Assembly (NCBI GenBank): GCA_965207075.1
Contig: CBDBLO010000002.1
Span: forward strand, 2,016,001 to 2,080,000
Reading direction: 5' to 3'
DNA length: 64,000 nt
From: Nitrosopumilus sp.
Lineage (GTDB): Archaea; Thermoproteota; Nitrososphaeria; Nitrososphaerales; Nitrosopumilaceae
In this document: piece after piece, positions 963 to 61,339 of the stretch
Numbering within the stretch: the stretch's first letter is position 1
Layout: every line of letters starts with the position of its first letter
Program-made: the position numbers and the translations under genes
Notes under the pieces: generated by a model
The model's input: the letters and a program-made list of their open reading frames with translations, nothing else
Told to the model about the DNA's origin: nothing
The model's database searches: none

Positions 963-1494
963 ATGTCCCAGTGTCCTCCTCGCTCTACGATGGTCGGAGT
1001 GTTCATTCCCTGTTTGGCACGAGGTTCAGTCTTGGAGCGCTGCGCGTTCGCGTTCCCGGCCGGTGTTCGCCATGGGCGCGCCGGCTCAATGCCGCCCGCC
1101 GTGTCATGCGTATACGTCACCGCCCTCGTCGGTTACCTCCGAGGACGGTCAATCGCCTCCCTCTCCGGCCAACAGGCAGCCAAACTCAATCACCACTCCC
1201 GCTGGAAACTTACAATCCCAGACATTTCATGAGGCGCGCAGTTACCGTTCAACGTTCTCGCGCACCAACCGCATGTGTCGGTATCAACGTGTTCCCCATC
1301 GGTAACTCGCACTCCATTCTTGGCGCAGGTCGCCCGGGGCATCCGTGACCCTACTACCGTCAGCCGGTCCAGAACACGAGGCGTCTCGGGCATGTCCAGC
1401 GGCCTGCCCCGGGCTCCGTCCAGAACCGAGCACCTACGCATCCTGTCGGCTCGGTCGGCTCCGCCGATCCCAAGGGGGCTCCGGACACAGGTTC

Positions 1495-37744: not shown

Positions 37745-38266
37745 ATGCAGACCAAGATGCAGGTCATTAAAGAGGTGCTCCGCACGCGGAGATACGCCGG
37801 GATAGCCGCGGCAAGCGGGGCCGGGCTCGGCGCCGTATACTACGTACTGACGATGTCCATGCTGCCCCTGCACCTTGAGTCGGGGGTTGCAATGGCGGCC
37901 GCCCCTGCGTACATCGCGGCGTCCGTATCACTTACAGCAGTCATCTCGGGTCTTGCGGGGATCAACTTTGCACTGATGGCGTTCAAGATAAGGCGCATGA
38001 GGATGATGTCAAACCTGCTTGTAAAGAAGCCGAACTCGACTGCCGCACCCATACTGGGCGGGGTCTTTGCGGCCTTTACGCCCGGATGCCCCGCATGCAC
38101 GGCGCCCCTGGCCGTCATACTAGGCGCGGTTGGGGGACTGTCCCTGTTCCCCATGCAGGGACTGGAACTCAAGATGATATCGGCGGGGGTGCTGCTGTTC
38201 TCGATATGGTGGATCACGCGCGGGCTGCAGAGCCGCAGCTGCTGCCGCATCGACGGCGCCGGCTGA
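37745..38266 (+). CDS. Membrane protein with GCPAC motif
   Basis: 4-5 TM helices, CPAC in the membrane region, terminal SCC. Confidence 0.75.
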   Translation: MQTKMQVIKEVLRTRRYAGIAAASGAGLGAVYYVLTMSMLPLHLESGVAMAAAPAYIAASVSLTAVISGLAGINFALMAFKIRRMRMMSNLLVKKPNSTAAPILGGVFAAFTPGCPACTAPLAVILGAVGGLSLFPMQGLELKMISAGVLLFSIWWITRGLQSRSCCRIDGAG

Positions 38267-38403
38267 CGGAAGATTGGACGGCGGAAATCATCTGAAATCC
38301 CCTGCGTGCACTGGGTGGCGCATGCCCAAAATTACGTAGTATACAGATCGGTGGTGCCAGAATTTCATGATATTGCATTAGGAAGTAACTTCATATACTT
38401 GTT

Positions 38404-38811
38404 ATGCGTACTATACGTATGAAAGGTACCAAAGCGAAAGATGCGCAAGGCTGCGCGGGAGCACGTGCGGCGGCCAGACACGGCATGCACGCCGACAAGC
38501 AACTGCCCGGCAGGGCCATTGCAGACGCACTCACCGAAAAGAGGGCACGCTGGAAATCCAAGCCGGGTGTCTTCGTGGTGGAGTCGTCCGGGACGCTCCT
38601 GGATCATGGAAGGAAGCCCAGCATACTGGTACAGGGCGAGAAGTCTCCGCGCACCATAATAGAGACGCCACATGGTGCAGGGAAGGACTTCGTGAGACAG
38701 ACCGGCAAAACGACTGTCGGCAGGCATACGGTAAACGTGGCCATGTCATCGCTCATGCCAGAAGAGTTCAGGGCCATGCGGCAGTCGAGACTGGCGAGTG
38801 TGTTTATGTAA
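38404..38811 (+). CDS. Hypothetical protein (island left end)
   Basis: ORF after an AT-rich promoter-like stretch; co-oriented with the following module. Confidence 0.5.
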   Translation: MRTIRMKGTKAKDAQGCAGARAAARHGMHADKQLPGRAIADALTEKRARWKSKPGVFVVESSGTLLDHGRKPSILVQGEKSPRTIIETPHGAGKDFVRQTGKTTVGRHTVNVAMSSLMPEEFRAMRQSRLASVFM

Positions 38812-38927
38812 ACACCACCTACTCCAAAGCCCTAGCACAGTTGCGGCAGGTCTCCTGCCGCACCCCCATTTCATGACTGGCTGGGCGTGCACAGGGCCTA
38901 CGGCTGAACCGGGCAAGACGGGCCGGT

Positions 38928-39212
38928 ATGCAGGGAGACGTGGACAGCCTCCGGGATTCCCTACGAGTCACGCGACGAGGATCTACAGGCGCAAGCCGTC
39001 CAGAATGCAAAAAAACACTAGGACAAGGACTAGCCGCTGCGCGTGCGCGTGTACGGACCAACCCTGGCGTCAGCGATAAACTACGCGCCGCCCAACCTTG
39101 GCGTGAAGCGTATGCACGATCGGAAAAATCCGGTAGGCGCGCTCCGGTGTTATCATGGGTTGTACCAATTACAAAAACGTCAAATACAAAGGCGCCATTG
39201 CCACGCGTATGA
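38928..39212 (+). CDS. Small basic hypothetical protein
   Basis: Stop overlaps ATG 39209 of the next gene (ATGA). Confidence 0.35.
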   Translation: MQGDVDSLRDSLRVTRRGSTGASRPECKKTLGQGLAAARARVRTNPGVSDKLRAAQPWREAYARSEKSGRRAPVLSWVVPITKTSNTKAPLPRV

Positions 39213-40108
39213 GCACAACCGCCCCAGAATGCACTGCGCACAGCACATCCCACGATCGTCTCGGGGGGCAAAAGGTGGCCGCGGATGCATGCGCGCACGA
39301 TGCCCGCCGTGAGACGGCCACCTCCGAGGGGGAGATCGTCTGCCGCGCGTGCGGGGTGGTAAAGGGGAAGGACGGGCGGCAGATGTACGGGGATCACGCG
39401 GCGCTTCCGCGCACCCGGACCAACCTGTACCTGGAGATGGAGGTGGGCGGCAAGCCGGACCGCAGGCTGCGTGCCGACAGGTTCGTGCGCCGAAAGCGCG
39501 ACATGTCGGCAGTCAGCAACATATCGCAAAAGCTCGGCATTCCAAACGGCGTGGGAAGGGACGTGTGGGCGTGGTACCAAAGACTGCGCCGCGCGCCCGG
39601 CATGCGCATGACAAAGGCAAAGATCATGGTTCTGGCGTTTCACGGAGTCTGCAGGATGCGGGGCTGCCCGCTAAACGAGGCCAGGCTACTGGACGCCATA
39701 CGCATGGAGCTGGGGGTTAGGCACGCGCATTCGTACCTCCATGTCATAATGGAGGCCTCGGCGTACGTCGACGAGGAGACCGGGGAGTATATGCTGCGCA
39801 GGATAGGATTTCCTGACCAGGTCGGGCACGCCGCGCTTGGCGGCATCGGCCGTGATGACGGTGCCGGTGCCGCCGGGCCCGCGCCGCCGTCGCTGCTGCC
39901 ACCCGCGCCCTCACCGCCACCCCCAAACATGTTTTCCATAAGCACCGAGATCCAGTCGCTGGCATACGAGTACGAGCCCGTAGTCGCGGAGGCGCTTGCA
40001 CGCGAGGCCCGCGCCATTCTTCCCGTACTGGAGTACGGGGAGCCCAGCCGGGCGCGGGCGGCGCGGGCGGCCATACGGATAGCAAAGAGGAGGTACGGGG
40101 TGCGGTGA
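39209..40108 (+). CDS. Divergent TFB/TFIIB-like protein
   Basis: CAH...EGEIVCRACGVV zinc ribbon followed by cyclin-like ISQKLGIP...VCRMRGCPL repeat. Confidence 0.65.
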   Translation: MSTTAPECTAHSTSHDRLGGQKVAADACAHDARRETATSEGEIVCRACGVVKGKDGRQMYGDHAALPRTRTNLYLEMEVGGKPDRRLRADRFVRRKRDMSAVSNISQKLGIPNGVGRDVWAWYQRLRRAPGMRMTKAKIMVLAFHGVCRMRGCPLNEARLLDAIRMELGVRHAHSYLHVIMEASAYVDEETGEYMLRRIGFPDQVGHAALGGIGRDDGAGAAGPAPPSLLPPAPSPPPPNMFSISTEIQSLAYEYEPVVAEALAREARAILPVLEYGEPSRARAARAAIRIAKRRYGVR

Positions 40109-41229
40109 CGGGCAGTCAGAACCCGCGGGGGCGACTGCAGCAGGTTCGTACCAGGTCCATACGGCGGCACGATCTTGACGTTACGGTCCCGCTGCAAAAG
40201 CAGGTGGACGCATACAAGGACATCTTTACAGAGGCGGCGGCCGGGCAGCAGCCGCCCCGTCATGCAAGCGACATCCCTGCAGTCAGGGTGGGCAGCGTAG
40301 GCGGCACGCTATATTTGATGGCAGACGGCGACGTATACCGCGGCGCCCTGGCGGCGGGCGCGGAATCGATCAGGTGCATGGTCATAAAATGCGCAGACAT
40401 GCCGGACTTTCTTGTAAGGCACGTCCAGTGCAACCACAGGCCCACGGGGATCAACCCGCTCCTCCTGCGCAGAGTGTCGGACTACGTGTCGGCGCACGGG
40501 AGCGAGGAGGCCGCGGCCCTGTCGCGCGCGTGCAGGGGGACGGTGCACCAAAAGTTCATCGCGCTCAACCTAGCGCCCGGGGCCGCGGCGGTACTCGGCG
40601 AGCTCTGCGAGTTCCTAGGCGCAAAGCTGTCGCAGTTCGCGCTGCCGTACTATATCCCGCACCACATATCCGGGAAAAGAACCGACATGCAGCAGGAGCT
40701 GGCCCAGAAGGTGTCGTGGCTGATAAGGGCGCGCCCCGTGACCGACGCCCGCTTTGCATGGCCCAGCTTCGAGGAGGTAAAGACGCTCTCGGACTTCCCC
40801 CGATACCGCAGGGAGGGGAAGTCAGTCGTAGTGACGCCGGACGGTGAGCAGGCGGCCCCCAAGGAGGTGCGGCGCGCAAGACAGCTGATCAAGAACGCGC
40901 GCGGCATCATCGCCATCCCGGGTACGGATGCGCACCCCCCGTACCTGGTGGACCTCAAGACAAAGCGCGCCTCCATTGTGGAGGACCGCAAGCTGGTCAC
41001 GGTCCTCAGGGACGCGGATCCAGAGGGCACGGGCGCCGCCATGACGTACCTGCTCCCACAAGAGGCCGGCAGATGGCTGGGGCTCTTGGGCGGGAAGCAA
41101 GACGGCGCAGACATCAAGATGATACAATTTGATGCGGCCACGGGCCTCGCGGAGTTCGCGGAAAAGCACCGCGGCGCGCGCGGGGTCGTGTTTTACAGGA
41201 GGACAGATGCCGCAGGACCGCCAAGCTGA
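40105..41229 (+). CDS. Hypothetical protein with divergent ParB/Srx-like N-terminal region
   Basis: IPAVRV...LYLMADG...GALAAGAESIRCMV resembles the ParB N-domain pattern without the Arg patch; GTGA overlap with upstream gene. Confidence 0.5.
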   Translation: MTGSQNPRGRLQQVRTRSIRRHDLDVTVPLQKQVDAYKDIFTEAAAGQQPPRHASDIPAVRVGSVGGTLYLMADGDVYRGALAAGAESIRCMVIKCADMPDFLVRHVQCNHRPTGINPLLLRRVSDYVSAHGSEEAAALSRACRGTVHQKFIALNLAPGAAAVLGELCEFLGAKLSQFALPYYIPHHISGKRTDMQQELAQKVSWLIRARPVTDARFAWPSFEEVKTLSDFPRYRREGKSVVVTPDGEQAAPKEVRRARQLIKNARGIIAIPGTDAHPPYLVDLKTKRASIVEDRKLVTVLRDADPEGTGAAMTYLLPQEAGRWLGLLGGKQDGADIKMIQFDAATGLAEFAEKHRGARGVVFYRRTDAAGPPS

Positions 41230-41282: not shown

Positions 41283-41342
41283 TGTCAAATCTGAGTGAAC
41301 TACGTGCCTACACGTAGGCAGGCGGGTCACGCAGATTTGACA
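41283..41342. repeat. 16-bp inverted repeat with nested palindrome
   Basis: TGTCAAATCTGAGTGA ... TCACGCAGATTTGACA (1 mismatch); inner TGCCTAC-AC-GTAGGCA. Confidence 0.85.
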
Positions 41343-45681: not shown

Positions 45682-46377
45682 CTAGGAGAATATGTCGGGC
45701 ACGGGAAGCCCGGACGGCAAAAAGTCAAACACGTCGCCAGGATCCGACAGCACCATGGCGCCGTGCCGGATCATCTCCTGCGGCCAGGCCAGCCTTTGGT
45801 CTGACGCCGCGGCTTTGGTCATGAACAGGGGGCGGCCGAGCCTCAGGGTCTCCCGACCCTGGTGCAGCGACCCGCTGGCGTCTCCTGCCTCCACTATTAT
45901 CGTGGCGTCTGATATCAGGGCCATAGTCTTGTTCCTGATTACAAAGTTCTTCCTAGTGACGGGATGCCCTGCCGGAAACTGCGATACGGCCAGGTGGTTT
46001 GCCGCGATCTCTTCCTGAAGGCCGGCGTTCTGTCTTGGGTACGATCGGTTTAGGGGTGTTCCAAGCACGGCCGCCGTCCTGCCCTTGCAGTCGATCGCGG
46101 TCCTGTGCGCCACCGCGTCTATCCCAGCTGCAAGGCCGCTCACGACCAGAACGTCCCTCCCGACTAGGATCTGCGTGATCTCCCTGGTGTCCATGATCCC
46201 TTTCTCAGTGGGCTCCCTAGTTCCGATCACCGAGACGCGCGGACGCCTTAGCGGGAGTTTCATCGGCCCCCTTACAAAGAGCCTGTCGGAGGAGTGTCTC
46301 GATTCCACCTCGTTCACCTGCCGGCCCAGCAGCTCCGCAAGTCCCACACTGCGCTCGATACAGCCGTGCATCGTCAT
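45682..46377 (-). CDS. dprA: DprA/Smf (SLOG) DNA-processing protein
   Basis: VIGTR, VSGLAAGID, VLGTPL, FVIRN, VEAGDASGS. Confidence 0.9.
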   Translation of the reverse strand: MTMHGCIERSVGLAELLGRQVNEVESRHSSDRLFVRGPMKLPLRRPRVSVIGTREPTEKGIMDTREITQILVGRDVLVVSGLAAGIDAVAHRTAIDCKGRTAAVLGTPLNRSYPRQNAGLQEEIAANHLAVSQFPAGHPVTRKNFVIRNKTMALISDATIIVEAGDASGSLHQGRETLRLGRPLFMTKAAASDQRLAWPQEMIRHGAMVLSDPGDVFDFLPSGLPVPDIFS

Positions 46378-46596
46378 TGTCGTATATGCTTGAGACTGCC
46401 ATAAGTGCTTTGTAGATGCGGGGGCATGACGCCGTGCGCATCTGGATCCAACCAGCTCTGGCACGAAGGCAGCGCGGTCTGTCGAGGGCGAAGAGGCAGA
46501 CAGAGATGGTATGACCGGCGCAAGCCTGCCGCATGCCCGCCTGCCCTATCACGGACAGTCCGGATGCCGGTGCGGCCGCATGACCGGCGCACGTGA

Positions 46597-46644
46597 AGTT
46601 ACCCGCAAACTTTCATAGATCTCTATGAAAGTTTGCGGGTAACT
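46597..46644. repeat. 48-bp palindrome, copy 1
   Basis: AGTTACCCGCAAACTTTCATAGA-TC-TCTATGAAAGTTTGCGGGTAACT; perfect 23-bp arms. Confidence 0.97.
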
Positions 46645-46890
46645 ACCGCGGCCCACGGCATCGTACACACATGGGTAGGAAATCCGGCAGCAGGCGCCAA
46701 GTGCCTCGGGCCTGGCTGGCACACGGATGGCGGGCCTGCCGCATGCCCGCGGGAGGCAGGGCGAGTCGGCGGGATTGGGGGCGCAGCGCGTGCCAAGAGG
46801 CGGCTACTGCGGCCAGTAATGCTCAAGTCGGAAACAGTGTTCCGGTGCAGGTACGCTCCTCCCTCCCCTCCCCTCCCCCGCCGCCGACAC

Positions 46891-46938
46891 AGTTACCCGC
46901 AAACTGTCATAGAATTCTATGACAGTTTGCGGGTAACT
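46891..46938. repeat. 48-bp palindrome, copy 2
   Basis: AGTTACCCGCAAACTGTCATAGA-AT-TCTATGACAGTTTGCGGGTAACT; fully perfect palindrome. Confidence 0.97.
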
Positions 46939-47163
46939 ACCGCATACCCGTAGCACCGCACGCACACGGGCAGAAAGTCAGGCAGCGGGTGCTAGGTGCC
47001 TCCGGCCTTGGCCGGGGCTCCCATGCGGCAACCGGAAGGCGGCGCCCCCACCCCTCCCACGCCAGGGCAGGGTCACATGCGGCTTTCGGGCTCAAGGGTG
47101 CAACAGACCTACGCCCGGCTTTCAGGCGAGGAAAAGCGCGGGATCCAGCTCACCGGGTTGCGG

Positions 47164-47475
47164 TCATTTGAGCCGGAGGCGCTCCAGCTTGCTCTTACCG
47201 GCAGCCGTACCCCGGCCGCCGGGCTTTTCGGACCTGTCCTTGGCCATCATCTCCGCTACGGCCCTCGCGTACTTGTCGGGGCCTGCAGAGTCGGGCGTAC
47301 TGTCACCCAAGACGCTCAGGGGGCTTATCACAATCTCCCCGTCTCTGACCCGGAACCTGACGCTCTGTCCTTTGCGGATCCCTGCCCTTTCTGCTATGGC
47401 CCGCGGTATTGTCAGGATGAACGATCCCCGGTTTAGCTGTATTCTGCGCTCGATTATTTTCTCTTCCATGACCAT
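47164..47475 (-). CDS. AbrB/MazE/SpoVT-family DNA-binding protein
   Basis: RRIQLNRGSFILTIPRAIAERAGIRKGQSVRFRVRDGEIVISP. Confidence 0.88.
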   Translation of the reverse strand: MVMEEKIIERRIQLNRGSFILTIPRAIAERAGIRKGQSVRFRVRDGEIVISPLSVLGDSTPDSAGPDKYARAVAEMMAKDRSEKPGGRGTAAGKSKLERLRLK

Positions 47476-47504
47476 TGATGCGCCATATCTACTTAAGGGA
47501 CAAA

Positions 47505-47746
47505 AACCGGTAAAGCAGGCAAAGCATGTGTCCGGCCCACCGGTAAAACATGGAAAGCGTGGAAAGCGCGCGTCCGGCCCACCGGTAAAACATGGAAAGC
47601 GTGGAAAGCGCGCGTCCGGCCCACCGGTAAAACATGGAAAGCGCGCGTCCGGCCCACCGGTAAAACATGGAAAGCGCGCGTCCGGCCCACCGGTAAAACA
47701 TGGAAAGCGCGCGTCCGGCCCACCGGTAAAACATGGAAAGCGCGCG
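47505..47746. repeat. Tandem array of six CCGGCCCACCGGTAAAACATGGAAA cores plus one degenerate copy
   Basis: Cores at 47532, 47574, 47616, 47649, 47682, 47715 (periods 42,42,33,33,33). Confidence 0.95.
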
Positions 47747-48120
47747 CATGATTGAGTGACACGCATGGAATGCTCCTCTCGCATATTGGTACTATACCAT
47801 AACGACGACCAGCGCTCTCCCACACATGTCACACTCAGAGGGTTGTTAGGTCGGCGCGTTCCCAATAGGACGGGAATCCATCTCGACCAACGTTTCAAGG
47901 CAACAGAGTCCAAGCGTCACGCGCAAGCCGCACAGGCCCACTTCTGAGCATCCTGTCGTGGCCATCTCTGACGAGTTCGGCCATCAGCAGCTCTTGTTCC
48001 CGATGTCTTCCTCGCCCAGGACGACTGGGGGGCCGATTGCTCGCCGGGCATTGGAAGACTGTTCTCGAGGGCTCTTCGCGCCCGCCTTTTCATTGCCCGA
48101 AACATGGACGGGTAGCCGAT

Positions 48121-48177: not shown

Positions 48178-51100
48178 TTACATGTGGCTGTCGAGGCCGT
48201 CACCCGACTTGTCCTTTTGCGGTGACGTGGTGATGAACATGGCGCCCACGAGCTTCATCCCGTCGTAGTCTATCTCCGCGTCAGCGTCCGTATCCTCTGT
48301 ACCTGCCCCCACCTGTTCGCCTATGAGATCAATCTCCTTGATCAGCATGTCCGCGTCCCCGTCACGCTCGTATCCGTCCACAATATCCTGTAGCTCGACA
48401 CCCCACGGCCGCAGCTGTGCGCTGTTTATGACGGCGTCTGCGCGCCCGGCGCTCTCAGAGTCAATCTTGCCGGACCTGTACGCCTCGGTTATCACGCTTA
48501 TGAGTCTAGTCCGCGTCTTTTCAAACCCAGTGTTCTGGGGGGTTCTGGCGTACTGTCTCACCACGTCGTCACTGTGTATGATTGCATCCCTTGCCTTTTT
48601 GTCTATCCGGATCAGATCTTCAAACGATTTTCGGTGGTCGTCACCATCCATTGGAAGGTACATCTCCTCGTCTGGAAAGCACCGGGCCTTGTTGACAGCG
48701 TCGTACTCGTTTTCAGGTACATACGCCTCGTTCCTTTCACAGTCGTATACCACAAAGTAGACGCGCCTCTCGGGCTTTGTCCTGACATACGCAAGTACGC
48801 ACTCGTTCTTGTCGCCCCCTGATTTGCCACTGCGCCTTCCAATCGGCATGGCGCGCAGCTCGTCCAAACCTATCTTTTTGGCGTGCTTGGCAATCTCGTT
48901 GAGCGGCGTGTTCTGTGGCATGAGATCCGAATCCCTCTCCATCTGCTCCACCACATCTGACGCCGCCGAGCCCTTTTCGCCCAGAACTTTCAGCCGCTCC
49001 CTGAGGTTCCCGTTGTACTGGCGCGGGTGTGGGGTCTCGCCCAGAAGCTCCGCATCAAGGCCAATGACCTCGTTTACGGTGTTTATCTTGTTTAGCAGCT
49101 TTCCCATCAGCTGGAGTATGCCGTCAAGCTCCTTGTCCGGGTAGCACGCCCTTGAGTGTATGATATCATGGCGACTGCCCAGCCTGTCGACCCTCCCTAT
49201 CCGCTGGACAATCCTCATTGGATTCCACGGCAGGTCGTAGTTTATCACGTAGTTGCAGTCCTGCAGGTTCTGCCCCTCTGCCAGCACCTCGGTTGATATG
49301 AGAATGTCAATCGGATCCCCTTCCGGCGGCTGGCCGTCAGACAGGTTGGCCACGGGCGCAAACCTCTCAATGTACTTGGATCGAGTGTCGGATTTGGTGT
49401 CGCCCGTTATGCACTCGACCGTACTGTCAGGAAACATTGTCCGCAGCTCACGGAGTAGGTATCTGGCAGTCGAGATGTATTCTGTAAATATCAGGATCTT
49501 GTGGCTTTCCGACCCCAGCGCGTTCTCCCTTAATATGGCGTCCCGGACCGCCTCGAGCTTTTTGTCGGCGGTCACCCTTCCCACCTCGTCCCACAACCCT
49601 CTCAGTATGACAAGGTCCGACCTCAGATCCTCCCTGAACCTTTCCATGTCGTAGCTTGACCCCATCTCTTCCGTCTCCATGTTCTGCAGCTGTCCAAGGA
49701 CAAACTCGTCCATGTCAAAGTCGCCGTACGTGTCGTCGCCGTACGTGTCGGCCTTGTTCATGATGTGGTTGCCCTTTGCGATGATCTGGTTGAGTTTCCT
49801 TACCCTTACCATCCTACCCTTGTCTGCTATGCTGATGATGTGCTCGTACAGGCGTATCTTGTTTTTGAGGCTTGACTTTACCGCCTCCACGCTGCTCTCA
49901 AACATCTTGAGCAGCAGTATCACCTGCAGGTGTGACAGAACCATGTGTCTTGCCCTTTCGTCCTCCGTGGCCTCCGTATTGTACTGCTCCAATCCGTACG
50001 GGGCCATGGTGAGCCTGTCGACATCCTCCAGTATCTTTTGGAATATGTTGCCGTACAGGTCCGCGAGGCAGTAGTGGATCGGCGAGTACTCGTGCTCCGG
50101 GAACTTGATTTGGTTGCCGTTTATCGTATCTTTGGGATACACCTCCCTGATGTACGAGCGCGTGCGGCGGATCATTATTCCGTCAAGCAGCCTCTGGATC
50201 TTCTCAAGGCCCGCTGCCAGTCCCCCTTCCTTGTTTGCCGCGTCCCTCATGTGCCTGTACAGGTCTGGTATGCCGATGGTGCGCCAAAAGTATGAGTCGT
50301 CGCCGCGGGTAATTATGGACATCTGATAGTACAGATCCATTATCGAATTGTTGATGGGGGTAGCAGACAGCAGGAGCGCCTGTTTTGACTTTCCGATGGT
50401 CATTATCTTTGCCAAGTTCCTGCTACGGTTGGCGTTTTTTGACCTAAAGTTCTGCGACTCGTCTATCAGCACAAAGTCGATGTTTCTGTACTCGTTCCAT
50501 CTCTCAAGGGCGTTCTCGCGCCCGAGCGACTCCATGGTAACTTGCTTGTACACGCTTATTCCGGACTCTTTGAGCTTTTTGTCCCACATGGATCGCAGCA
50601 CTTGGGACGGGGCCACTAGGAGCGCCCTCCTGCCCTCTTTTAGGATCTTCTGGCGCAGGATCTCCATGCCCATGTTGGTCTTGCCTAGGCCTGTGGCATC
50701 CGCGATCATGGCTCCCTGGAATTCTGATAACACGAGCATTGCGGTGTGGACCGCCCCCTTCTGGAACTCTGCAAGCTCTATGCTGTACTGATGTCCGATG
50801 TCGTCGTCTGGCGTCAGAAGCTCACGGTACCTCTCAAATATCATCTTGATGTATACGTCGTACGGGGACGCGGGAATCCCGAACTTTGATGACTCGAGCT
50901 GGTTTATCAGATCCTGCTTGGCGTCCTTGGACTCGGCCCACATGCGGTCAAACCATACGCGGGTCCTCCCAGAGACGGCCGGCTGGTACAGCCCGGCGTT
51001 CAGCTCGTTGTTTGCAGTCAGTCCGCCGTTTGTAAAATTGCTGGAGCCGATGAATACAGTGTCGTCGTCAAATATGTAGCATTTGGAGTGGTTGAACCTG

Positions 51101-51483
51101 GATCTGCCAAGCCTCACCTCGACGTTATCCATGCTCAGAAGGCGCAGGAGCGATGCGGTGTCTGACATCGCGTCCAGCGTCAGCTCCGACTCGTCAAGGC
51201 CGCTCTTGAGCGATACCGCATCCTCGCCGCCCTCTTCGGCCATCTCCTCAAACGTCGCATCCGGAACCAGCGCCGGCTTTCCAAGCAGCAACCGCACCCT
51301 GCCGCCTCTCTCGTGGACTAGTCCGTCAAGCGCGTCCTTTAGCAGTGCGTAACCGGGCACGTTAAAGTAGCCCGTTGATATGTCAAGGTTGTGGGTGAAC
51401 GGTATCTCGGAATTGAGTACGTCGCGCATAGTGATGCCGTCTGTGGTGTTGTCGATTATGTCCTGCTTGATTTTTTTGTTCAT
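48178..51483 (-). CDS. SNF2-type helicase with N-terminal PLD nuclease domain
   Basis: HSKCYIFD...IGSSNFT (HKD); ADATGLGKT, LIDESQ, LSATP, EGQNLQ, YDLPWNP, QRIGRVDR. Confidence 0.92.
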   Translation of the reverse strand: MNKKIKQDIIDNTTDGITMRDVLNSEIPFTHNLDISTGYFNVPGYALLKDALDGLVHERGGRVRLLLGKPALVPDATFEEMAEEGGEDAVSLKSGLDESELTLDAMSDTASLLRLLSMDNVEVRLGRSRFNHSKCYIFDDDTVFIGSSNFTNGGLTANNELNAGLYQPAVSGRTRVWFDRMWAESKDAKQDLINQLESSKFGIPASPYDVYIKMIFERYRELLTPDDDIGHQYSIELAEFQKGAVHTAMLVLSEFQGAMIADATGLGKTNMGMEILRQKILKEGRRALLVAPSQVLRSMWDKKLKESGISVYKQVTMESLGRENALERWNEYRNIDFVLIDESQNFRSKNANRSRNLAKIMTIGKSKQALLLSATPINNSIMDLYYQMSIITRGDDSYFWRTIGIPDLYRHMRDAANKEGGLAAGLEKIQRLLDGIMIRRTRSYIREVYPKDTINGNQIKFPEHEYSPIHYCLADLYGNIFQKILEDVDRLTMAPYGLEQYNTEATEDERARHMVLSHLQVILLLKMFESSVEAVKSSLKNKIRLYEHIISIADKGRMVRVRKLNQIIAKGNHIMNKADTYGDDTYGDFDMDEFVLGQLQNMETEEMGSSYDMERFREDLRSDLVILRGLWDEVGRVTADKKLEAVRDAILRENALGSESHKILIFTEYISTARYLLRELRTMFPDSTVECITGDTKSDTRSKYIERFAPVANLSDGQPPEGDPIDILISTEVLAEGQNLQDCNYVINYDLPWNPMRIVQRIGRVDRLGSRHDIIHSRACYPDKELDGILQLMGKLLNKINTVNEVIGLDAELLGETPHPRQYNGNLRERLKVLGEKGSAASDVVEQMERDSDLMPQNTPLNEIAKHAKKIGLDELRAMPIGRRSGKSGGDKNECVLAYVRTKPERRVYFVVYDCERNEAYVPENEYDAVNKARCFPDEEMYLPMDGDDHRKSFEDLIRIDKKARDAIIHSDDVVRQYARTPQNTGFEKTRTRLISVITEAYRSGKIDSESAGRADAVINSAQLRPWGVELQDIVDGYERDGDADMLIKEIDLIGEQVGAGTEDTDADAEIDYDGMKLVGAMFITTSPQKDKSGDGLDSHM

Positions 51484-54400
51484 TTTACATCATCAAATAT
51501 CTCGAGCGCTTTTTTTCTCATTTCACCGTAAAACTCCTTGAGATTGCTGTTGTCCCAGATTATTTCCTTTTCGTTCCACAAGTCGGGGTTTTCTCTGAAC
51601 AGCTTAAAGGATTCTAGTATTGTCTTGTATTCTTGTTTGTCAATGCCATATGCCTTTGCAACTATAACGTCGAGTCGGGCTGCAATGTCTATGCGATCTG
51701 CGACGGTCAGATATCTATTGGGAATATGCATAGTTTCTGCCAATCCTGCGAAGTCGGTATGACCAACTAGTAATTTAGCGGCCAGATTGGAGATCTCATT
51801 TTTGTATTTGTTTGGAATTGAAATGTCTGAAATAAGTGTGGAGAGGTGCACTTGTATAATCTGCCTTGAAATGAAATCAAAGGTAGTAGAGTTGAATACG
51901 CCACACAGATATACCATTGTGCGAATATACGCGTCATCTAACAATAGTGTTCCATCCCGTTTTATTAGAACGGAGCGGAGGGCATACGTGTGAAATGTTT
52001 TTGGTGGGATAATAGTTGCAATTGTGGTTCGCATATTTGTTGGACCTGATACGTCTCGAAATACAAGTCTGTAAGAATTGTAAAATTCTCGGTGCTTTTT
52101 AGCGTACTTTGGCTTGTCTTCCCGTTTGAGTCCGGCTCTCGACTGTGCGGTGAACATGGGTCTGGACCATGTGTGATTATATTGGTGAATCGTTTTGCCC
52201 TCATGTATGGACCATCCCCTGCCGTCTTCGCGGAACAGTTTAGAGTCGTCTGTTTTGCGAAATCCGTCAGCAAATGATATAGACATACCGTCTTCAGATA
52301 ATGCGTCTGCCAATTTTGGATGTTTGTATAGCTTGACGAGTATGTCACTAGTATTATACATGTTTTCTGGTATGGTTAAAGTTTCGGGGAACATTTCTCG
52401 AATTTTTATCTTGGAGTGTTTGCCAAATTTTTCCTTTTCTATGGTGTGGTCAATTAATGATGATAAGTGGTGTAGGTAAAATCCTACAGGGAATTCGTCC
52501 TTTTTGGTTTTTGAATTCCTGAGTGTCAGTAGCATGAATCTATAGCTAGAGTGAATGTCAAATATTTTTCCTTTGTTTTCAAATACGTATAACTGAATTA
52601 TCTCCTTGTTTAGTATCTCTTGTCTGATATCTGTGGAACCAGAGGATGCTAGAACCTGTGATGGGATAACCATTGATATAACTCCATTCTCTGATAATAG
52701 TTGGAACGTTCTCTCAAGTATCAGTTTTGAAAGATCTCGGGCGTCACTTCCTTGCATCTGATATGTCGATGCAGTTGAATAAAAATTAGTTTTTTCCAGA
52801 AATGATTTTTTGTATAATTCATACTCTGTTTTTATTTCGTCGTTTTGAAGTAATATATCCATAATTTCTTCCTTTTTGGCCTTTGTTGGAAGTGATTTAA
52901 ACGCAGGATAGTACGGAGTAAAGAATTCATCATCGAATGGTTTTATTTTATCCCATGGCGGGTTTCCTATGATGACGTCAAAACCATGCCGTGCATCGGT
53001 AAACGCGTCTCGCATCTCCAGCTCCCAGTGAAAGAATCTTCGTCGCTCTGCAATCTCCGAGACCTTGCGGCGTGCGTCCCGTATTGTCTTATCCTCGTTT
53101 TTACCGTACCGCCCGAACCGGTGGACAAACTCCATGCCGGACTTTTTTGGCAACATCGTGTCGTCGATTATCGATGCGGCAAACGCGTCAAGCACCCTCT
53201 TGGTATTGGATACGGATTCAGCGTATTTTTCGTACAGGGCCTCGCTACGCCGTACCTGCGAAACTGTGATATCCGGACTCGTCGAGACATCTTCCAACAT
53301 CGCGTTTGACTCCTCTCCAGGCATCCAGTCATCAAGGCTCTGATTCTTAACTCCATTCAGGTCATCAAGAGATACGCCTATCGTCGAGTCGCCCGTTCTG
53401 ATGTGGTGATCCATGTAGGTAAACGGCACCCCTATTGCAAAAGAATCAAGCCACAATGCAAGTTTTGCAATCTCAGTCGCGGTCGGGTTGCTGTCCACGC
53501 CGAATATGCACCTCTTCATTATCTTGCGCTTTAGCAGGACGTCATGCGTCAGGAGGTTGAGATCTATTGACACTCCCATTTTCTCCTGCTCGTCAACGAC
53601 GGTCTTGCGATCAACTTCCAGCTCTTCGAGCAGTGGATGCTTCGGATGTTTCTTCATGGTCTCAGTGGCCCACGAGGTCAGCTGGTTGAGTGCCTCGACC
53701 AGAAAATGGCCGCTGCCCATCGCCGGATCCAGTACTTGGATGTCAAGAAGATGCTCCATGCACGCGTCGCGGTTTTCAGGTGTCGGGTTTTTGGCGTATG
53801 ATGCGACGTCGCGCCCGATCTTAGAGGATCTGTCTGCCAGTATCGGCTCCAGTCCACGGCGTACGAGAAACTTTACGATCTCATCGGGCGTATAGTAGCT
53901 TCCGGTGCCCTTGCGCATCGCCAGGCCTCCCTTTGAGGCCAAGTACAGATCATTTTTTTTGTACGAATAGTTTGATTCGCGGGACGCCCGCACCTGCACG
54001 ATCTTGTGTCCCTTTACAAGCAGCATGACGTCCTTTTTGGCCTGCTGGATCGAGAATTCCATGACGCTCTCAAGTATGTTGCCAAGGTGTCGGACTCCGA
54101 GGCTTGCATAGTCGATGGTGTCCCCGTTGTGCTCAAGCAGGTCGCGCAAGGCGGGCACGAGCCAGCGGTTCTGAATGCTCATCCTGTCTATATCCGGATC
54201 ATGTCGGAAGAGGTTGCCGTTGTACTGCGGCAGGTTGTTTTCTGGACTCCCGTCCCGGATTCCCGCGAACATCTTTAGTAGGTGCTTCCAGCACGAGTCA
54301 CCGTCCTGCTCTTCGTGCATGTCAAGCTTCCCTCTGAGTCCGCGAAGCGACATGTTGGCTGCATACTTTTTGTCAGATATGGGCAGTAGGTTTCTTGACT

Positions 54401-55466
54401 CGGCATACGCCACAAACCAGACACGGTATATTATGCGCAGTGCGGCCTCCTTGGCAGAGGCAAGCTCCTCAGCATCAAAGACTGTTTTCATGTTATGGTT
54501 TAAGATTCCCTTTGCAAGATTTAGCAGGACACCATCCTGACTCATGATGCGCTCAGACAGGTTTTCCTCCAGCTGTGTTGCAAACTCCTTGCCCTGATCA
54601 AAAAAAAGGTCTATCCGAGGGCTCTTGCCAGCATAGGATGCGTATCCAAATATAATATACAGATACTGCAGCACCGTATCAGACGGCTCGGCAAGGTTCA
54701 GCTCAAAATAGTTGGTGGTGGATGCAGACACCCTGCTGGTGTAGAGTCGCCACTTTGCGCCGTTTGTGAGTATCACCCACCGGTGCTTGGAGAGCGCAGA
54801 TACTGCCCGGTAGCTTGGCACTACGTCGTCGCGGCTCTCACGTATGCTAAAGTTCTCTTGGTCCGTGACTATGACATGTACTGTCCCACTGCGAGGCTCG
54901 CTTGTCTTCCTCCATCCCAAGGCCTTCAAGAGACTCTGCGCGTCGGTGCCAGCGTCGCGCAGGGCCTTTATGGCGCCCTCGCTGCCGGACGCGTCATCAA
55001 ACACGCGATTTCTCAGGTAGTGGGTGGAGAACAGTCCCCTGTTCTCAAAGTCGTACGTGGTGGAAGGTATCGCATCTATGGAATCCTCAAGACGAGCAAT
55101 GAGTTCGATGTTGTTTTTTGCATCTCCGACATTGTTTGCCTCTAGTATCTTTGCTATCCTGCTGTATTCTGCATCGCTGTCAAGCGACACCATGTGAGTC
55201 TTGTCCGGGGTGCGTATGAGGAGTTTTTTGAGGCCGGATGCCAGTATCACGCAGGAGGGGAATCTCCTGACCACCCGCTTGAGATCTGTAACAGTCTTGG
55301 GGGCTTTTCCACTCTGCCCCCCGTCCACGATCAGTATGGGTGTGTTTCTTGACTTTGATGCGTGGTTGAGGCTGTAACAGTCCCAGCCTTCCAATTCCAG
55401 AGAGCGCCTTGTGTCATATGACACTCCTAGAGACGCAAGCAGTTGCTTGGTATGGGCCCTTGTCAC
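51480..55466 (-). CDS. Type IIG (Eco57I-like) restriction-modification enzyme
   Basis: ILTNG..WRLY nuclease-region motif, YNGNLF, GSYYTP, LDPAMGSGHFL, IGNPPW; C-terminal TRD; ATGA overlap with helicase. Confidence 0.92.
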   Translation of the reverse strand: MTRAHTKQLLASLGVSYDTRRSLELEGWDCYSLNHASKSRNTPILIVDGGQSGKAPKTVTDLKRVVRRFPSCVILASGLKKLLIRTPDKTHMVSLDSDAEYSRIAKILEANNVGDAKNNIELIARLEDSIDAIPSTTYDFENRGLFSTHYLRNRVFDDASGSEGAIKALRDAGTDAQSLLKALGWRKTSEPRSGTVHVIVTDQENFSIRESRDDVVPSYRAVSALSKHRWVILTNGAKWRLYTSRVSASTTNYFELNLAEPSDTVLQYLYIIFGYASYAGKSPRIDLFFDQGKEFATQLEENLSERIMSQDGVLLNLAKGILNHNMKTVFDAEELASAKEAALRIIYRVWFVAYAESRNLLPISDKKYAANMSLRGLRGKLDMHEEQDGDSCWKHLLKMFAGIRDGSPENNLPQYNGNLFRHDPDIDRMSIQNRWLVPALRDLLEHNGDTIDYASLGVRHLGNILESVMEFSIQQAKKDVMLLVKGHKIVQVRASRESNYSYKKNDLYLASKGGLAMRKGTGSYYTPDEIVKFLVRRGLEPILADRSSKIGRDVASYAKNPTPENRDACMEHLLDIQVLDPAMGSGHFLVEALNQLTSWATETMKKHPKHPLLEELEVDRKTVVDEQEKMGVSIDLNLLTHDVLLKRKIMKRCIFGVDSNPTATEIAKLALWLDSFAIGVPFTYMDHHIRTGDSTIGVSLDDLNGVKNQSLDDWMPGEESNAMLEDVSTSPDITVSQVRRSEALYEKYAESVSNTKRVLDAFAASIIDDTMLPKKSGMEFVHRFGRYGKNEDKTIRDARRKVSEIAERRRFFHWELEMRDAFTDARHGFDVIIGNPPWDKIKPFDDEFFTPYYPAFKSLPTKAKKEEIMDILLQNDEIKTEYELYKKSFLEKTNFYSTASTYQMQGSDARDLSKLILERTFQLLSENGVISMVIPSQVLASSGSTDIRQEILNKEIIQLYVFENKGKIFDIHSSYRFMLLTLRNSKTKKDEFPVGFYLHHLSSLIDHTIEKEKFGKHSKIKIREMFPETLTIPENMYNTSDILVKLYKHPKLADALSEDGMSISFADGFRKTDDSKLFREDGRGWSIHEGKTIHQYNHTWSRPMFTAQSRAGLKREDKPKYAKKHREFYNSYRLVFRDVSGPTNMRTTIATIIPPKTFHTYALRSVLIKRDGTLLLDDAYIRTMVYLCGVFNSTTFDFISRQIIQVHLSTLISDISIPNKYKNEISNLAAKLLVGHTDFAGLAETMHIPNRYLTVADRIDIAARLDVIVAKAYGIDKQEYKTILESFKLFRENPDLWNEKEIIWDNSNLKEFYGEMRKKALEIFDDVK

Positions 55467-55604
55467 ATTTGAGAATCTGTATGCTGTATTCTTATGTCTT
55501 ATCCTACGAAAGCACTGTTGCAGAGACGGATCAAATTCGCTATCTGTAGTTATCCGCTATATTTGAGACCGAACTGCTCGATCATGGGATAGAGATCATC
55601 GCCG

Positions 55605-56618
55605 TCAATCCCTACCATCTGACTTGTTATCGATAACCGTCCAGATCCTCTGCAGCGGAATCTCCGATTTTAATTCCTCATCGAGTGAGTCATAGTTCTC
55701 CGTCAGCTCGCCTACAATTTTATCTTGATCCCACAACCGTGTACGAAAAAACGCCCTGTTTATCTCGCTATCGGCCGCCTTGGTAAGGCCGCCCCAAGCC
55801 ACCAGTATGCCATAACTTGCGCCAAAGCTTTGGATGACACCCTCCAGCTGCCGCAGCACCGTGACATTCACCGGCGCGCGTGACGACTTTACCTGTATGC
55901 ATATCTTCGGATCATCAAAGCCTAGCTTGCCCGATGCCGCAAGTATGTCCACGCCGCCGTCGGGTCCTGGCGGTGAGCGTTTCGTGACATATCCCTTTGC
56001 GATTAGAATTCCATCAATCAGCCGTGCAAGATTGTGTCCCATAAATTTACTCTCAAGAAACCTGACTATACGGTCCTTTGACAGCACCTCCAAGTCAAAT
56101 GGCTGGTTTGCATCATCCCCGCCGTCTACATCTCCTCTCCGTATGTGTCTGTCACTCAGCATATCCCTTGCGCGAGATTCGGCGTCCCTCGCATTGATCC
56201 GTCCTACTGTCAGGAGGGAGCCCAATGAATACAATATGTCTTGGTCAAATTCCGACCGCATTATGGTTTTTTTCCAGATTACAGGCCTCTGATGTAGCGT
56301 GTTCGGTGAGCTGTGGTTGTATTGGTAGTCGCCAGTGACCTCCCCTACTGCCACAGAAGGCTGCAACTTTAGCGGCGTCGCCACTAGGTCGCCTTTTTTG
56401 ATACTGTGCAAAAAATTCCATATTTGGCCTACATGGTTTGCTACAGAGGCTTTTTTTCGATCTGTATATGTTTGGGCATACAGATCCGAAAGCTGCTCCT
56501 TTTGATGTATGCCAGACAGGTCTGGCAGATCGTTCCATCCTATTGCAATGATGCCCTTCTCTTGTATCTCCTGTTCACGTTCGCCGTATTTGCCTGCTCG
56601 CACAAACCAGAAAGTCAT
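55605..56618 (-). CDS. Mrr-like type IV restriction endonuclease
   Basis: WFVRAG N-domain; GPDGGVDILA...IQVKS catalytic motif. Confidence 0.9.
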   Translation of the reverse strand: MTFWFVRAGKYGEREQEIQEKGIIAIGWNDLPDLSGIHQKEQLSDLYAQTYTDRKKASVANHVGQIWNFLHSIKKGDLVATPLKLQPSVAVGEVTGDYQYNHSSPNTLHQRPVIWKKTIMRSEFDQDILYSLGSLLTVGRINARDAESRARDMLSDRHIRRGDVDGGDDANQPFDLEVLSKDRIVRFLESKFMGHNLARLIDGILIAKGYVTKRSPPGPDGGVDILAASGKLGFDDPKICIQVKSSRAPVNVTVLRQLEGVIQSFGASYGILVAWGGLTKAADSEINRAFFRTRLWDQDKIVGELTENYDSLDEELKSEIPLQRIWTVIDNKSDGRD

Positions 56619-56666
56619 GTGTTGTGTGCCGTACGTGATGATTAAAGCATGCCGGTTACGATTTCA

Positions 56667-57187
56667 GGTACTGGTACAAATTCGTGATATGGGCACGGAA
56701 TCGATTACTGGGAAACTTATTGTAGCGGCCCCACCCGGCCTGCAAACTTACAGGAATCAAAGAAAAGAGTGCCCTTGCGGGCGTTGGTCTAAGTGAACAG
56801 TTTTATGACTGCTATGACCAGACCCGTGTTACGCGTATGATCTCGATGTTTACCCGCATTTGGATCATCTTCCGCGAGTTTTCTGTTCACGGCGCCTATA
56901 GTGGCGTCCACGTTATCAAGACCAGATGTGTGGTCTATCTCCCTAACTACTCGTTTCACAACGAGTCAAAACCTAGGAGGACGAGATAAGCCCACCCTCA
57001 AATTCTTTTCTAATGTCATGATCCAAGAGACTTACATCTGTATATTTAATACTTGTTGCTTCCAGATTCGGCGTTGCCGTAGACTCCCCCAAACACTTCT
57101 AACGGCCTACCTAGACTGTGTTCTTGGTGTCGGTATTTAACGACACGGGCCAGACTGACGCCCATATCACGAATTTGCACCAGTACC
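56667..57187. mobile_element. Non-autonomous IS6-like element (MITE)
   Basis: 29-bp inverted repeat with 1 mismatch at 56666-56694 and 57160-57188; ends GGTACTGGTRCAAA resemble IS6/IS26 ends; no transposase inside. Confidence 0.7.
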
Positions 57188-57224
57188 TAATCCATGTGAT
57201 CCCTCTTAGTCCGCTTGTTCCAAG

Positions 57225-58235
57225 CTATTCAGAGCAAATGCAGACCTTACATTTTGTGATAAATTTTGAATTTATTTTAATCTTTTTAGATTTCAAATTT
57301 ATAGGAAGCTGTCGGTTCTTCATTCTACGCTTTGCTAGTTTTATAATAGTTTTTTGCGGCAAGTAATACATCATTCCCCTAGCACCTATATAATTACAAT
57401 TATGAGATGCCAACGCTTGACCAAAGTTAAGCGCGTTTTCCAAACGCTTCCTACTCACTAACCTGATATTTTTGCAATCTTGTAGACAATGAATCATTCC
57501 AGCGCTTGACCAGTCACCAGATCCAGCAGCATCAACCAGATTATTCACTGGAAATGAAGATAGCGTTTTCCATCCCGTGTCTCTTAAAAAATTTGTCTTG
57601 TACTGTAGTCCACTTTCTCCCATTGTTTGAATTTCCAGTGGGACAGATATGCCAAGTTTTTCAAGACTTGTTGATCTATTGTAACAATGTTTTACAATGT
57701 CCGCAATCTTTAGACATTGCAAAAATAAACTGTTGGAGAGAAATTTTGGGGGTTCAAACACAATAATTGCATTGTGTTGTTTCAGGTAGCAAGCTAATTT
57801 ATATGCGCTAGGTGTGGCACGATCAAAATAAAATACATTTGCAGGAGGAAGTTGATTTTGGATGGTTTTCAGTAGCTTGAGTGTAAAGATCTTTCTTTGG
57901 GGTAGCCATATCCCATGTTCACACTTGAGATAAAACCTATGATAGGGCCGCTTCCCTGCAAAAACTCTTTCTATTATTCGGGGCGTTCTTGTGTCGCTTT
58001 CTTGCAGGATGAAGTCCGTGTTAGTTCCCCATTTTTCCATATCTTCGATCATTCGATTGCCCTCCACATCTCTACCTAGTCGTGCCATGGGAAATGTTCT
58101 CCACCCAAAACTGGCAAGTATAGTAAGTACGTTGCCACAAGAACCGCCTGCAAAAAAACTTGGTGGCTGTGTGTTACTATCGTATATGACATCTAGAGCA
58201 ACTAGGCCGGTACCCACACATATTGAATCAACCAC
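57225..58235 (-). CDS. PfkB/ribokinase-family carbohydrate kinase
   Basis: AGGSCGNV, QTMGESG, VDAAGSGD. Confidence 0.88.
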   Translation of the reverse strand: MVDSICVGTGLVALDVIYDSNTQPPSFFAGGSCGNVLTILASFGWRTFPMARLGRDVEGNRMIEDMEKWGTNTDFILQESDTRTPRIIERVFAGKRPYHRFYLKCEHGIWLPQRKIFTLKLLKTIQNQLPPANVFYFDRATPSAYKLACYLKQHNAIIVFEPPKFLSNSLFLQCLKIADIVKHCYNRSTSLEKLGISVPLEIQTMGESGLQYKTNFLRDTGWKTLSSFPVNNLVDAAGSGDWSSAGMIHCLQDCKNIRLVSRKRLENALNFGQALASHNCNYIGARGMMYYLPQKTIIKLAKRRMKNRQLPINLKSKKIKINSKFITKCKVCICSE

Positions 58236-58339
58236 GATTCAGCACCCGTGTTACCAAATGAATTCCGAACTTTTGAAGCTGCGAAGACAGTGTTAAAGAT
58301 GTTAATATCGAGTAGAATGCTACAAGCAGCTCGCTGATA

Positions 58340-59452
58340 CTATACATAACATTCACCTGTAATCCATAACGAAAATAATTGAGCAAAAGACGGATTCCAC
58401 CTACTAATCATCTCTCTATCCATGATATAACCATCTGAGGGGACGTATGCAATACCAACTTTTTCATTGTTTTGAATACCCTCTTCATATGCCACTAGGA
58501 AGACCCCCAATGAAATCAGCTTGCTTGACAAAGCAGAAATTGCAACTTTACATTTACCCAAAGGGTAGAGCGAGCGTCTGTAGCCGTGGATTACTCGATG
58601 AATTGCACGATAAGCCTCAAAAGGGTTTTGTTCAGCGGCGTATATCATATTCCGGATCTCTATATCAGACTCTTCCACAAGAAATTTTCTATTTTCTAGC
58701 ATGAGATCGTCTCCACGTCTAGGATTCTGAGATGGAAACGGCAATACTGGGCATATCTCTTTAGCCGATACTTGATTTTTAATTCGTATCATCTGATCGT
58801 ATCTACCTTCTCCCAGCACTGGAATCCAGATCATTACCTCATCTTCACCAGAGGTAATGTCCAAGTCACCAGTGAAACCATGCAAGTATGATGCTTTATC
58901 TACCAAGCCAGATTTTCTAATGGCTTTATCTACAGAAGCATCCTCTGCAACTACAACATGGAGGTTTATGCGTGAAGTATCCTTCAAAATATGTAATGTC
59001 TTACCTATTAGTGGCATGTATACATCAAGGGGCATAGACGATATATCAATTATTATGTCTGAGTATTTTTCAAACTCTCCGAGATCTTTGAATATTTCAG
59101 CGGCTTTTCGGGAACCAATGCGGTATCCATCATCAGCTTTCATTGAAATATTTTTGATTTGAATAGTGCCTACAGCATTCACTAATTTTTCCAATCTAGA
59201 TTTATTTTGTTGAATCTCAACGTCATATTTGGTAGATGGAGAATTTTTGCCCTCATCAAATTGGATCAAAATAAAGTCACGAAGTCCATAGCTAGGATTT
59301 TTCATAATTGCTTCTGCGCACAAGCACATTCGTGGATCAAATCCTTGGCCTAAAACTATCAGAAGATTTCGCTTTTTTGCCAAATGTGTTTTCCAGAAGT
59401 CATCGAATGAATCATTCTTAAAAAGCAAGTAGTCCTCCCAGCGCAATGTCAT
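58340..59452 (-). CDS. Hypothetical protein of the five-gene operon
   Basis: GFDPR, IIDISSMP, WIPVLGE, PVLPFPS, LSSK; ATGA overlap with the ATPase stop. Confidence 0.85.
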   Translation of the reverse strand: MTLRWEDYLLFKNDSFDDFWKTHLAKKRNLLIVLGQGFDPRMCLCAEAIMKNPSYGLRDFILIQFDEGKNSPSTKYDVEIQQNKSRLEKLVNAVGTIQIKNISMKADDGYRIGSRKAAEIFKDLGEFEKYSDIIIDISSMPLDVYMPLIGKTLHILKDTSRINLHVVVAEDASVDKAIRKSGLVDKASYLHGFTGDLDITSGEDEVMIWIPVLGEGRYDQMIRIKNQVSAKEICPVLPFPSQNPRRGDDLMLENRKFLVEESDIEIRNMIYAAEQNPFEAYRAIHRVIHGYRRSLYPLGKCKVAISALSSKLISLGVFLVAYEEGIQNNEKVGIAYVPSDGYIMDREMISRWNPSFAQLFSLWITGECYV

Positions 59453-61338: not shown

Positions 61339-61339
61339 A

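Follow-up and report, generated by a model that had tools for sequence, protein, structure and literature searches.

The locus raises the question of why a mobile island of Nitrosopumilus should carry two long and almost perfectly symmetrical palindromes, and what such DNA could do for the element that holds it. By the window we mean the whole 64-kb stretch of DNA that was analysed; other loci are given as L numbers.

The two palindromes

A sequence-only reading of the window had pointed out two 48-bp palindromes in which a difference between the copies is compensated at the mirror position. We confirmed both, coordinates and arms included.

46597..46644, no strand: palindrome P1, TTT subtype; 42-bp family core at 46600-46641, centre ATCT
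46891..46938, no strand: palindrome P2, TGT subtype; 42-bp family core at 46894-46935, centre AATT

The arms of P1 are perfect over 23 bp around the 2-nt centre TC (23+2+23), and P2 is perfect straight through its centre AT (24+24). The two start 294 bp apart, between a DprA-like and an AbrB-type gene, and differ only at the mirror pair 16/33 (T-A versus G-C) and at positions 24/25. The second-longest perfect inverted repeat of the window has arms of only 10 bp, and arms of 23 bp or more would be expected there by chance about 1.5e-8 times; the palindromes are real and far beyond chance. Their 48-bp unit with a 2-nt centre holds within the window, and across genomes it gives way to a 42-bp core with a variable 4-nt centre. 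Similarly, the ACCGC noticed after both copies is present, and the shared right flank proved to be much longer: 46597-46713 and 46891-47008, a 118-bp unit, are 80.5% identical, which amounts to about 70 bp of likeness to the right of the sites, and the left sides are unrelated.

The P1 core is 41/42 identical to L026:7344 and L094:167 and 39/42 identical to L072:10000. The P2 core is 40/42 identical to L026:8017, whose left and right flanks also match. Since both sites recur in the genome of L026, within flanks of 85-96% identity, an assembly fold-back artefact, the case that the sequence-only reading had named against itself, is ruled out. Plasmid and phage collections gave only chance matches to the palindromes (E 0.7).

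A family of 42-bp sites

We performed one scan of a species-representative genome collection with exact 10-bp arms and a free interior, which gave 109 loci; owing to the exact arms, diverged copies such as L021:8146 are missed outside the loci searched. Seven of the 109 loci, from three Nitrosopumilaceae/Thaumarchaeota genomes, had the same 40-bp geometry and interior (8 matches), and a fuzzy search of these seven added L026:8017, L095:80 and L021:8146. With the two of the window, the family has 13 sites in eight loci and four genomes (the window's included), all of them intergenic. The 42-bp core reads TACCCGCAAAC, then the subtype letters TTT, TGT or AAT, CATAG, N4 and the mirror. Conservation at positions 2-11 is biased by the search pattern; positions 14-19, which lie outside it, are exact in 23 of 26 half-sites. 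The central hexamer occurs in eight variants and is palindromic in 5 of the 13 sites.

Three genomes have 1, 2 and 5 exact matches, and the L072 site is the only exact match on its 2.1-Mb chromosome. With a family model, no additional convincing copy came to light in the window or the seven related loci, and no solo arms were seen in the eight loci. An empty-site search of the same eight, which has low power, gave no genuine case, its 10 candidate rows being GC-rich chance matches. No earlier description of the 42-bp site turned up in the open-licence literature searched, where the supplements of PMC6563490 could list such repeats; the family is small and apparently undescribed.

The other 102 loci of the scan (bacteria and one Woesearchaeota) were rejected as members and excluded from all family counts. 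They hold mostly 34-36-bp palindromes with a different inner part, and 18 of them reached at best 38.9 bits against the family model, versus 61.2-82.1 bits for the 13 members, from which the model was built. They represent a separate, widespread bacterial class (e.g. L001, L005, L010, L029), for which a literature search gave no name. In 24 of these 102 loci a tRNA or tmRNA gene is no more than 300 bp away, mostly at a distance of 2-11 bp, and the class may represent attachment-site-adjacent repeats of bacterial integrative elements.

Symmetry and subtypes

Among the 19 core pairs, five show changes on both sides, none a wobble, nine are invariant and five depart by mismatch only. The covariation score was reached by none of 500 shuffles, a control that ignores relatedness. 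When orthologous sites were collapsed to 11 junction types, the subtype was symmetric in 9, against 3.3 expected (p=3e-4); the p-values are optimistic because the sites are related. The exceptions are L026:7625 (AAT/TAT) and L021:10000 (AAT/TTT), the latter being the one full hybrid site. This pattern points to a symmetry that would act at the level of DNA, through a dimeric reader, a hairpin or template copying. Mirror changes can also come from template switching.

Genes of the island

47164..47469, minus strand: AbrB/MazE-type DNA-binding protein gene (PF04014), pointing towards the sites
45682..46464, minus strand: DprA-like (ShosA-like) cargo gene left of P1; longest ORF, true start probably near 46390
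39155..41229, plus strand: TFIIB-like gene (39155-40108) and ParB-like gene (40105-41229), 81.6% identical in DNA to L072
41383..43074, plus strand: tyrosine recombinase of the island; structure model pLDDT 69, no demonstrated link to the sites
47506..47746, no strand: tandem direct repeat with a 33-bp unit (6.8 copies), upstream of the AbrB gene, within the shared cassette 46597-47854

The TFIIB-like gene owes its label to a weak Zn-ribbon match (E 0.08-0.3) and to the gene pairing described in PMC6563490. The ParB-like protein shows a ParB/Noc/KorB fold on a low-confidence model (pLDDT 43.7), and its family is narrow (22 matches). Canonical ParB proteins have a nucleotide-binding motif, the GxxR patch. 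Here the arginine patch is replaced by a GDVYR-type sequence, and judged by eye the canonical form is missing in 21 of 23 aligned rows, the remaining two being one misaligned and one divergent row. With this loss, the ICE ParB-like family may represent a ParB that has become inactive or taken on another role, coupled to a TFIIB homologue.

The model of the 41383 recombinase matched XerA, the phage integrase Brujita Int and the integron integrase IntI first in Foldseek, and no protelomerase was among the listed matches. Its family is broad (582 matches), and tblastn found no homologue in the seven related loci. PDB sequence searches with the integrase and the ParB-like protein gave nothing significant. 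Two further ParB-like paralogues and a second integrase seem to lie on the window's own contig, which suggests co-resident elements.

The gene left of P1 scored best against ShosA (E 5e-68), and the DUF3800 gene beside it had no PADLOC match. The AbrB layout of the window is repeated in L026; L072 and L090 have a different AbrB-type gene in that place, and BLASTP gave no alignment between the two types, both of which match PF04014 (E=6e-9 and 1.4e-6). The 33-bp repeat, whose unit corresponds to three helical turns and whose array is shorter in L026 (about 8800-8940), could be an autoregulatory or centromere-like array; an actin-like gene is present in the related locus L021 (6402-7253).

DNA in common with other loci and the relatives of its proteins suggest that the window belongs to Nitrosopumilaceae-like archaea. 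The island also holds an IS66 fragment and defence genes. The defence cluster, at 48178-63972 on the minus strand, comprises a PLD-SNF2 helicase, a type IIG-like methylase, Mrr/PDC-S02, a PfkB kinase, a triple CARF protein, a 629-aa protein (59449-61338), a PRTase and a HAD-domain protein; past 57 kb, the G+C content of the window drops to 35-42%. Two other repeats were seen in the window: a 60-bp imperfect inverted repeat at 41283-41342, in the gap between the ParB-like and integrase genes and unrelated in sequence to the palindrome family, and a perfect 42-bp tandem repeat (31098-31439, 8.1 copies) inside the ORF 30400-31503. VirB4/VirD4 ATPases, pilins and prepilin peptidase were not found among the window genes scanned (36-64 kb), and the island may extend past the window end; because no VirB4 was found among these genes, the window may be a partial element or a cargo island. 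No att-like repeat connects 38151-39200, at the left border of the island, with the rest of the window, the right border being beyond view.

Mobile-element context of the sites

Mobile-element genes adjoin the site in six of the eight loci; L094 and L095 comprise about 1.1 kb of sequence in all, and the neighbourhood examined at L094/L095, L090 and L101 was 0.5-0.6 kb each. L072 has an AbrB-type gene, a TFIIB-ParB pair 0.5 kb away, a VirB4-like gene (E=8e-23) 4.5 kb away and a weak peptidase A24 match. L101 contains the beginning of the VirB4-like gene known from L072, with the site about 180 bp ahead of it, and a site of L021 is upstream of pilin-like (E=0.002) and actin-like (E=2e-11) genes. 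An AbrB-type gene adjoins the site in L090. The neighbours of the L026 sites are a tRNA-Lys gene (1.7 kb away), AbrB and an integrase-like gene 0.2 kb from the array, whose product is only distantly related to members of the 41383 family (25% identity, E 7e-4). Altogether, three solo sites (L101, L021:8146 and L072) are located about 110-180 bp upstream of conjugation-type operons, with VirB4-like and pilin/actin-like genes in the first two, and in four of the eight loci an AbrB-type gene is oriented towards the site. A TATA-like box begins 12-14 nt from the site edge in 3 of 13 sites; the distance to the nearest box varies, and no match to the pattern was found within 260 nt of P1 or P2.

Neither a relaxase nor any other cutting enzyme was detected among the scanned window genes (36-64 kb) or among the proteins scanned from L021, L026 and L072. 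One orphan ORF of 443 aa (L072 6169-7500) lies in the ICE region on the strand opposite to its neighbours and has two relatives among 1.8 billion representatives; as a candidate processing enzyme it gave no Atlas match, two library matches and no family. We also noticed a 585-bp stretch without annotation, 82% identical between window 900-1483, near tRNA-Ala, and L026 9130-9711, just past the palindrome cassette; short repeats follow both copies.

It is well supported that the palindrome is a cis-site of Nitrosopumilaceae ICE-type elements. The sequence-only reading had already connected the palindromes with a mobile island, which the six loci beside mobile-element genes bear out, and had held that symmetry was retained while the sequence changed, in line with the mirror covariation and the subtype symmetry across the family. 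The search in relatives that it proposed showed the site at low copy number (1-5 exact copies per genome).

Arrays, flanks and breakpoints

46505..46596, plus strand: left flank V of P1, common to L094, not to L026
46645..46750, plus strand: module Y after P1, GC-rich and non-coding; accompanies the site in array copies and is absent beside solo copies
46769..46890, plus strand: spacer module M before P2
46939..47008, plus strand: second, truncated copy of module Y after P2

The window segment 46597-47854 corresponds to L026 7341-9046 with 85-96% identity in the main blocks, and on the left the match breaks off where P1 begins. Two blocks are extra in L026: one of 372 bp, which brings a third site, of the AAT subtype, and falls between the counterparts of 46768 and 46769, and one of 170 bp. 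The two indels lie between GC-rich repeats, away from the palindromes. The window pair is thus one array unit shorter than L026. A third array is formed by L094 and L095, and all three multi-site arrays mix subtypes (TTT-TGT; TTT-AAT-TGT; TTT-TGT-AAT), with all five spacers in one orientation and none inverted. A 17-bp repeat has one copy in flank V (46524-46540) and another at 46734-46750.

A coding origin of module Y was rejected: its seven aligned copies contain frameshifting indels, and a peptide-like minus frame has a stop in the P2 copy; the differences between the copies show a slight 3-nt period (9 of 18 in one phase). RNA structure was not indicated either: of 31 and 38 predicted pairs, none and one, respectively, had changed on both sides. 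Near these arrays we also saw a MITE-like 92-bp element (L095 348-439, 18-bp inverted ends, 9-bp flanking direct repeat) beside the AAT-subtype site, and a second small inverted repeat, in the array module Z, at L095 ~619-640 (10-bp arms), with variants near 7750 and 8235 in L026 and near 380 in L094.

When flank positions 10-30 were compared, four locus pairs were identical at 15-20 of 20 positions on one side of the site and at only 4-7 of them on the other, in contrast to homology on both sides in the control pair P1/L094. The 26 flanks fell into 16 classes, three of which were each joined to 2-4 different partners, and the flank graph has no cycle, so that no reciprocal product pair is seen. 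Both L021 and L090 run out in a common stretch of ~165 bp where contigs of a single assembly end, and assembly effects could thus account for two of the four breakpoints and for the one full hybrid site. Ordinary homologous recombination or cruciform breakage likewise produces breaks at a dispersed repeat.

A putative cut-and-rejoin junction

Of the functions considered, we favour a protein-bound junction at which DNA is cut and rejoined, similar to a transfer origin and with subtypes, and would put its probability at a little under 40%. A dimeric protein encoded by the element would read both 19-bp arms of the dyad, recognising the fixed TACCC, AAA and TCATAG blocks and the subtype letters at positions 12-13, with the 4-nt centre left free. 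Extruded as a cruciform or folded into a single-strand hairpin, the DNA would then be cut and rejoined at the site, and segments of the element would thereby begin or end there, as at a transfer origin or a module junction. On cargo islands, the present defence island among them, copies of the TTT, TGT and AAT subtypes would build up in short tandem arrays, and mixed arrays would let different co-resident ICEs act on them. We infer the protein binding, cleavage, transfer role and subtype specificity, and we favour this reading because it joins the long conserved arms, the mirror subtypes, the mixed-subtype arrays and the breaks at the site, and because the oriT variants of the pWBG749 family provide a precedent (PMC4652767).

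The site has the intergenic inverted repeat with hairpin potential that is expected of an oriT in a conjugative element. As for an asymmetric core or nic site, no one-sided flank is common to all sites, solo copies being without module Y, and no cognate relaxase was found among the scanned proteins, which cover part of each element. Because these formal tests for nick core and relaxase fail, we do not file the site as an oriT. It seems rather unlikely that the dyad is specifically the transfer origin of an archaeal conjugative element without a recognisable relaxase, with protein-specific subtypes and with non-autonomous defence islands collecting arrays of subtypes by which several co-resident ICEs could mobilise them.

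Alternative explanations

Nearly as good as the cut-and-rejoin reading, and possible if doubtful, is an operator or a partition/loading site, at which an ICE regulator (the AbrB-type protein, a winged-helix protein, or the ParB-like protein with the ICE TFIIB) would bind the intact duplex dyad and control transfer operons or segregation; the breakpoints would be a by-product of recombination between repeats. This explains the solo sites upstream of transfer operons, and the TATA-like boxes 12-14 nt from three sites, the AbrB-type genes pointing at the site in half of the loci, the several copies per genome and a ParB-like family that is narrow like the site all fit. However, arms of 19 bp are long for one dimer, the site stays the same although the two AbrB types do not align, the TATA-like boxes vary in distance and none was found near P1 and P2, and a parS role is at odds with the missing GxxR CTP-binding patch. 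A crossover site for the 41383 recombinase or a relative, with inverted core arms on either side of a 6-bp overlap, would account for the exchanged flanks and the hybrid site L021:10000; a tyrosine recombinase lies 3.5 kb away, the distant one of L026 is 0.2 kb from its array, and 8 of the 9 window and RHO2 sites have a hexamer with GA..TC as its outer letters. We consider it improbable, since the overlap should be identical, whereas the P1 and P2 centres differ and the hexamer has eight variants, and since exchange at the centre would be expected to give mixed subtypes, in contrast to the symmetry of 9 of 11 junction types. Archaeal dif sites, moreover, are 11+6+11 bp (PMC8371274), in contrast to the 19-bp arms. 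The sequence-only reading had tied the sites to the 41383 integrase and had supposed that the 246-bp spacer could be excised or inverted; the first idea is not supported, given the lack of homologues in the seven related loci and a recombinase family far wider than the site, nor is the second, given the uniform orientation of all five spacers and indels that lie between GC-rich repeats.

A selfish or neutral repeat, either a tiny TA-flanked MITE or a duplicated palindrome, kept symmetrical by template switching, multiplied through duplication and having no ICE function, also appears unlikely. In 12 of the 13 sites the core is bounded by TA on either side, units are gained and lost in the arrays by way of GC-rich repeats, and L095:80 and L021:8146 are degenerate copies; but copies are few, no genuine empty site was met in the eight loci (at low power), the context is of ICE type wherever it is known, and the L072 core is 39/42 identical where the TFIIB-ParB genes are 81.6% identical. 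Nor do the sites look like back-to-back element ends, as had been suggested, given that solo arms are missing from the eight loci and that subtype symmetry holds within a site, not across the spacer ends. That the sites act as a structured RNA following the AbrB gene, whether a terminator, a processing hairpin or a small RNA, is very unlikely: the hairpins are very stable (z -8 for 46560-47020, folded as DNA) and the site is 3' of an AbrB-type gene in four loci, but the core has no wobble substitutions, the flank shows no covariation, no Rfam family reached its gathering score (chance miRNA-precursor matches, ~22 bits), and a bacterial-type scan found no terminator-like site at the palindromes. 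Least credible of all is the proposed telomere-resolution site for a protelomerase making hairpin ends. Length and near-perfect symmetry are similar, and in 10 of 13 sites position 20 pairs with position 23; TelA, however, requires a specific palindromic central 6 bp (PMC3558466), against eight variants here, five of 13 sites palindromic. The sites are internal and in arrays, and the 41383 model folds like XerA and the integron integrase, with no protelomerase among its listed matches. The cut-and-rejoin reading, for its part, has to contend with the lack of a relaxase or other cutting enzyme among the scanned proteins, with the acyclic flank graph, which shows no reciprocal products, and with tandem arrays, given that, according to PMC4652767, staphylococcal plasmids with two oriT sites do not carry them as a same-strand pair. 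What survives of the first interpretation is a symmetric DNA site on mobile islands with an origin-type role as the leading idea; its recombination, telomere and element-end versions found no support.

Comparison with known systems

Thaumarchaeal ICEs are described as having the TFIIB-ParB pair as a signature, no relaxase found and extensive recombination of modules (PMC6563490). The window resembles them in its TFIIB-like gene directly before the ParB-like gene, and the related loci in their VirB4-like, prepilin-peptidase-like and pilin-like genes, reshuffled modules and lack of a detected relaxase; unlike here, the passages of that report on these ICEs describe no internal palindromic site (PMC6563490). 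In staphylococcal plasmids, 2-3 oriT variants occur and recombine during mobilisation (PMC4652767). The oriT sites and oriT mimics of the pWBG749 family are likewise inverted-repeat sites with subtypes differing in the repeat, 2-3 per replicon, with recombination at the sites and a small DNA-binding gene nearby; however, that oriT is a branched three-repeat hairpin with an asymmetric core and a known relaxase, neither of which was found beside the single symmetric dyad, and its neighbour is of the ribbon-helix-helix type, whereas here there are tandem arrays and an AbrB-type neighbour (PMC4652767).

XerA/dif and att sites share the dyad symmetry and variable centre, and a XerA-like fold is encoded in the island, but dif is an 11+6+11 bp single-copy site (PMC8371274), in contrast to several sites per genome with 19-bp arms. 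The sites are also not at a tRNA attachment site, the tRNA-Lys of L026 being 1.7 kb off. A comparison of Sulfolobus conjugative plasmids reportedly revealed a short recombination motif that bounds modules. Their origin regions have gene-free direct and inverted repeats similar to the arrangement here, although these are short (10-15 bp), and the account of them in PMC4390865 describes no 42-bp perfect subtyped dyad in the parts drawn on. The targets of the protelomerases TelA and TelK are long palindromes of similar size, with a fixed palindromic central hexamer and a dedicated enzyme (PMC3558466), neither of which was found here.

In archaeal conjugative plasmids, no relaxase homologue has been recognised, and the pili probably carry single-stranded DNA (PMC9905601). 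The start of DNA transfer in archaeal conjugative elements is not yet understood, and it is on this step that the site family may bear. The site is a real, apparently undescribed, subtyped palindrome of Nitrosopumilaceae ICE-type elements, and whatever its mechanism may prove to be, a conserved, subtyped, ICE-linked dyad with module exchange offers a concrete DNA bait for the missing protein. Even if the operator reading were true, it would provide a defined cis-site for the unexplained TFIIB-ParB module.
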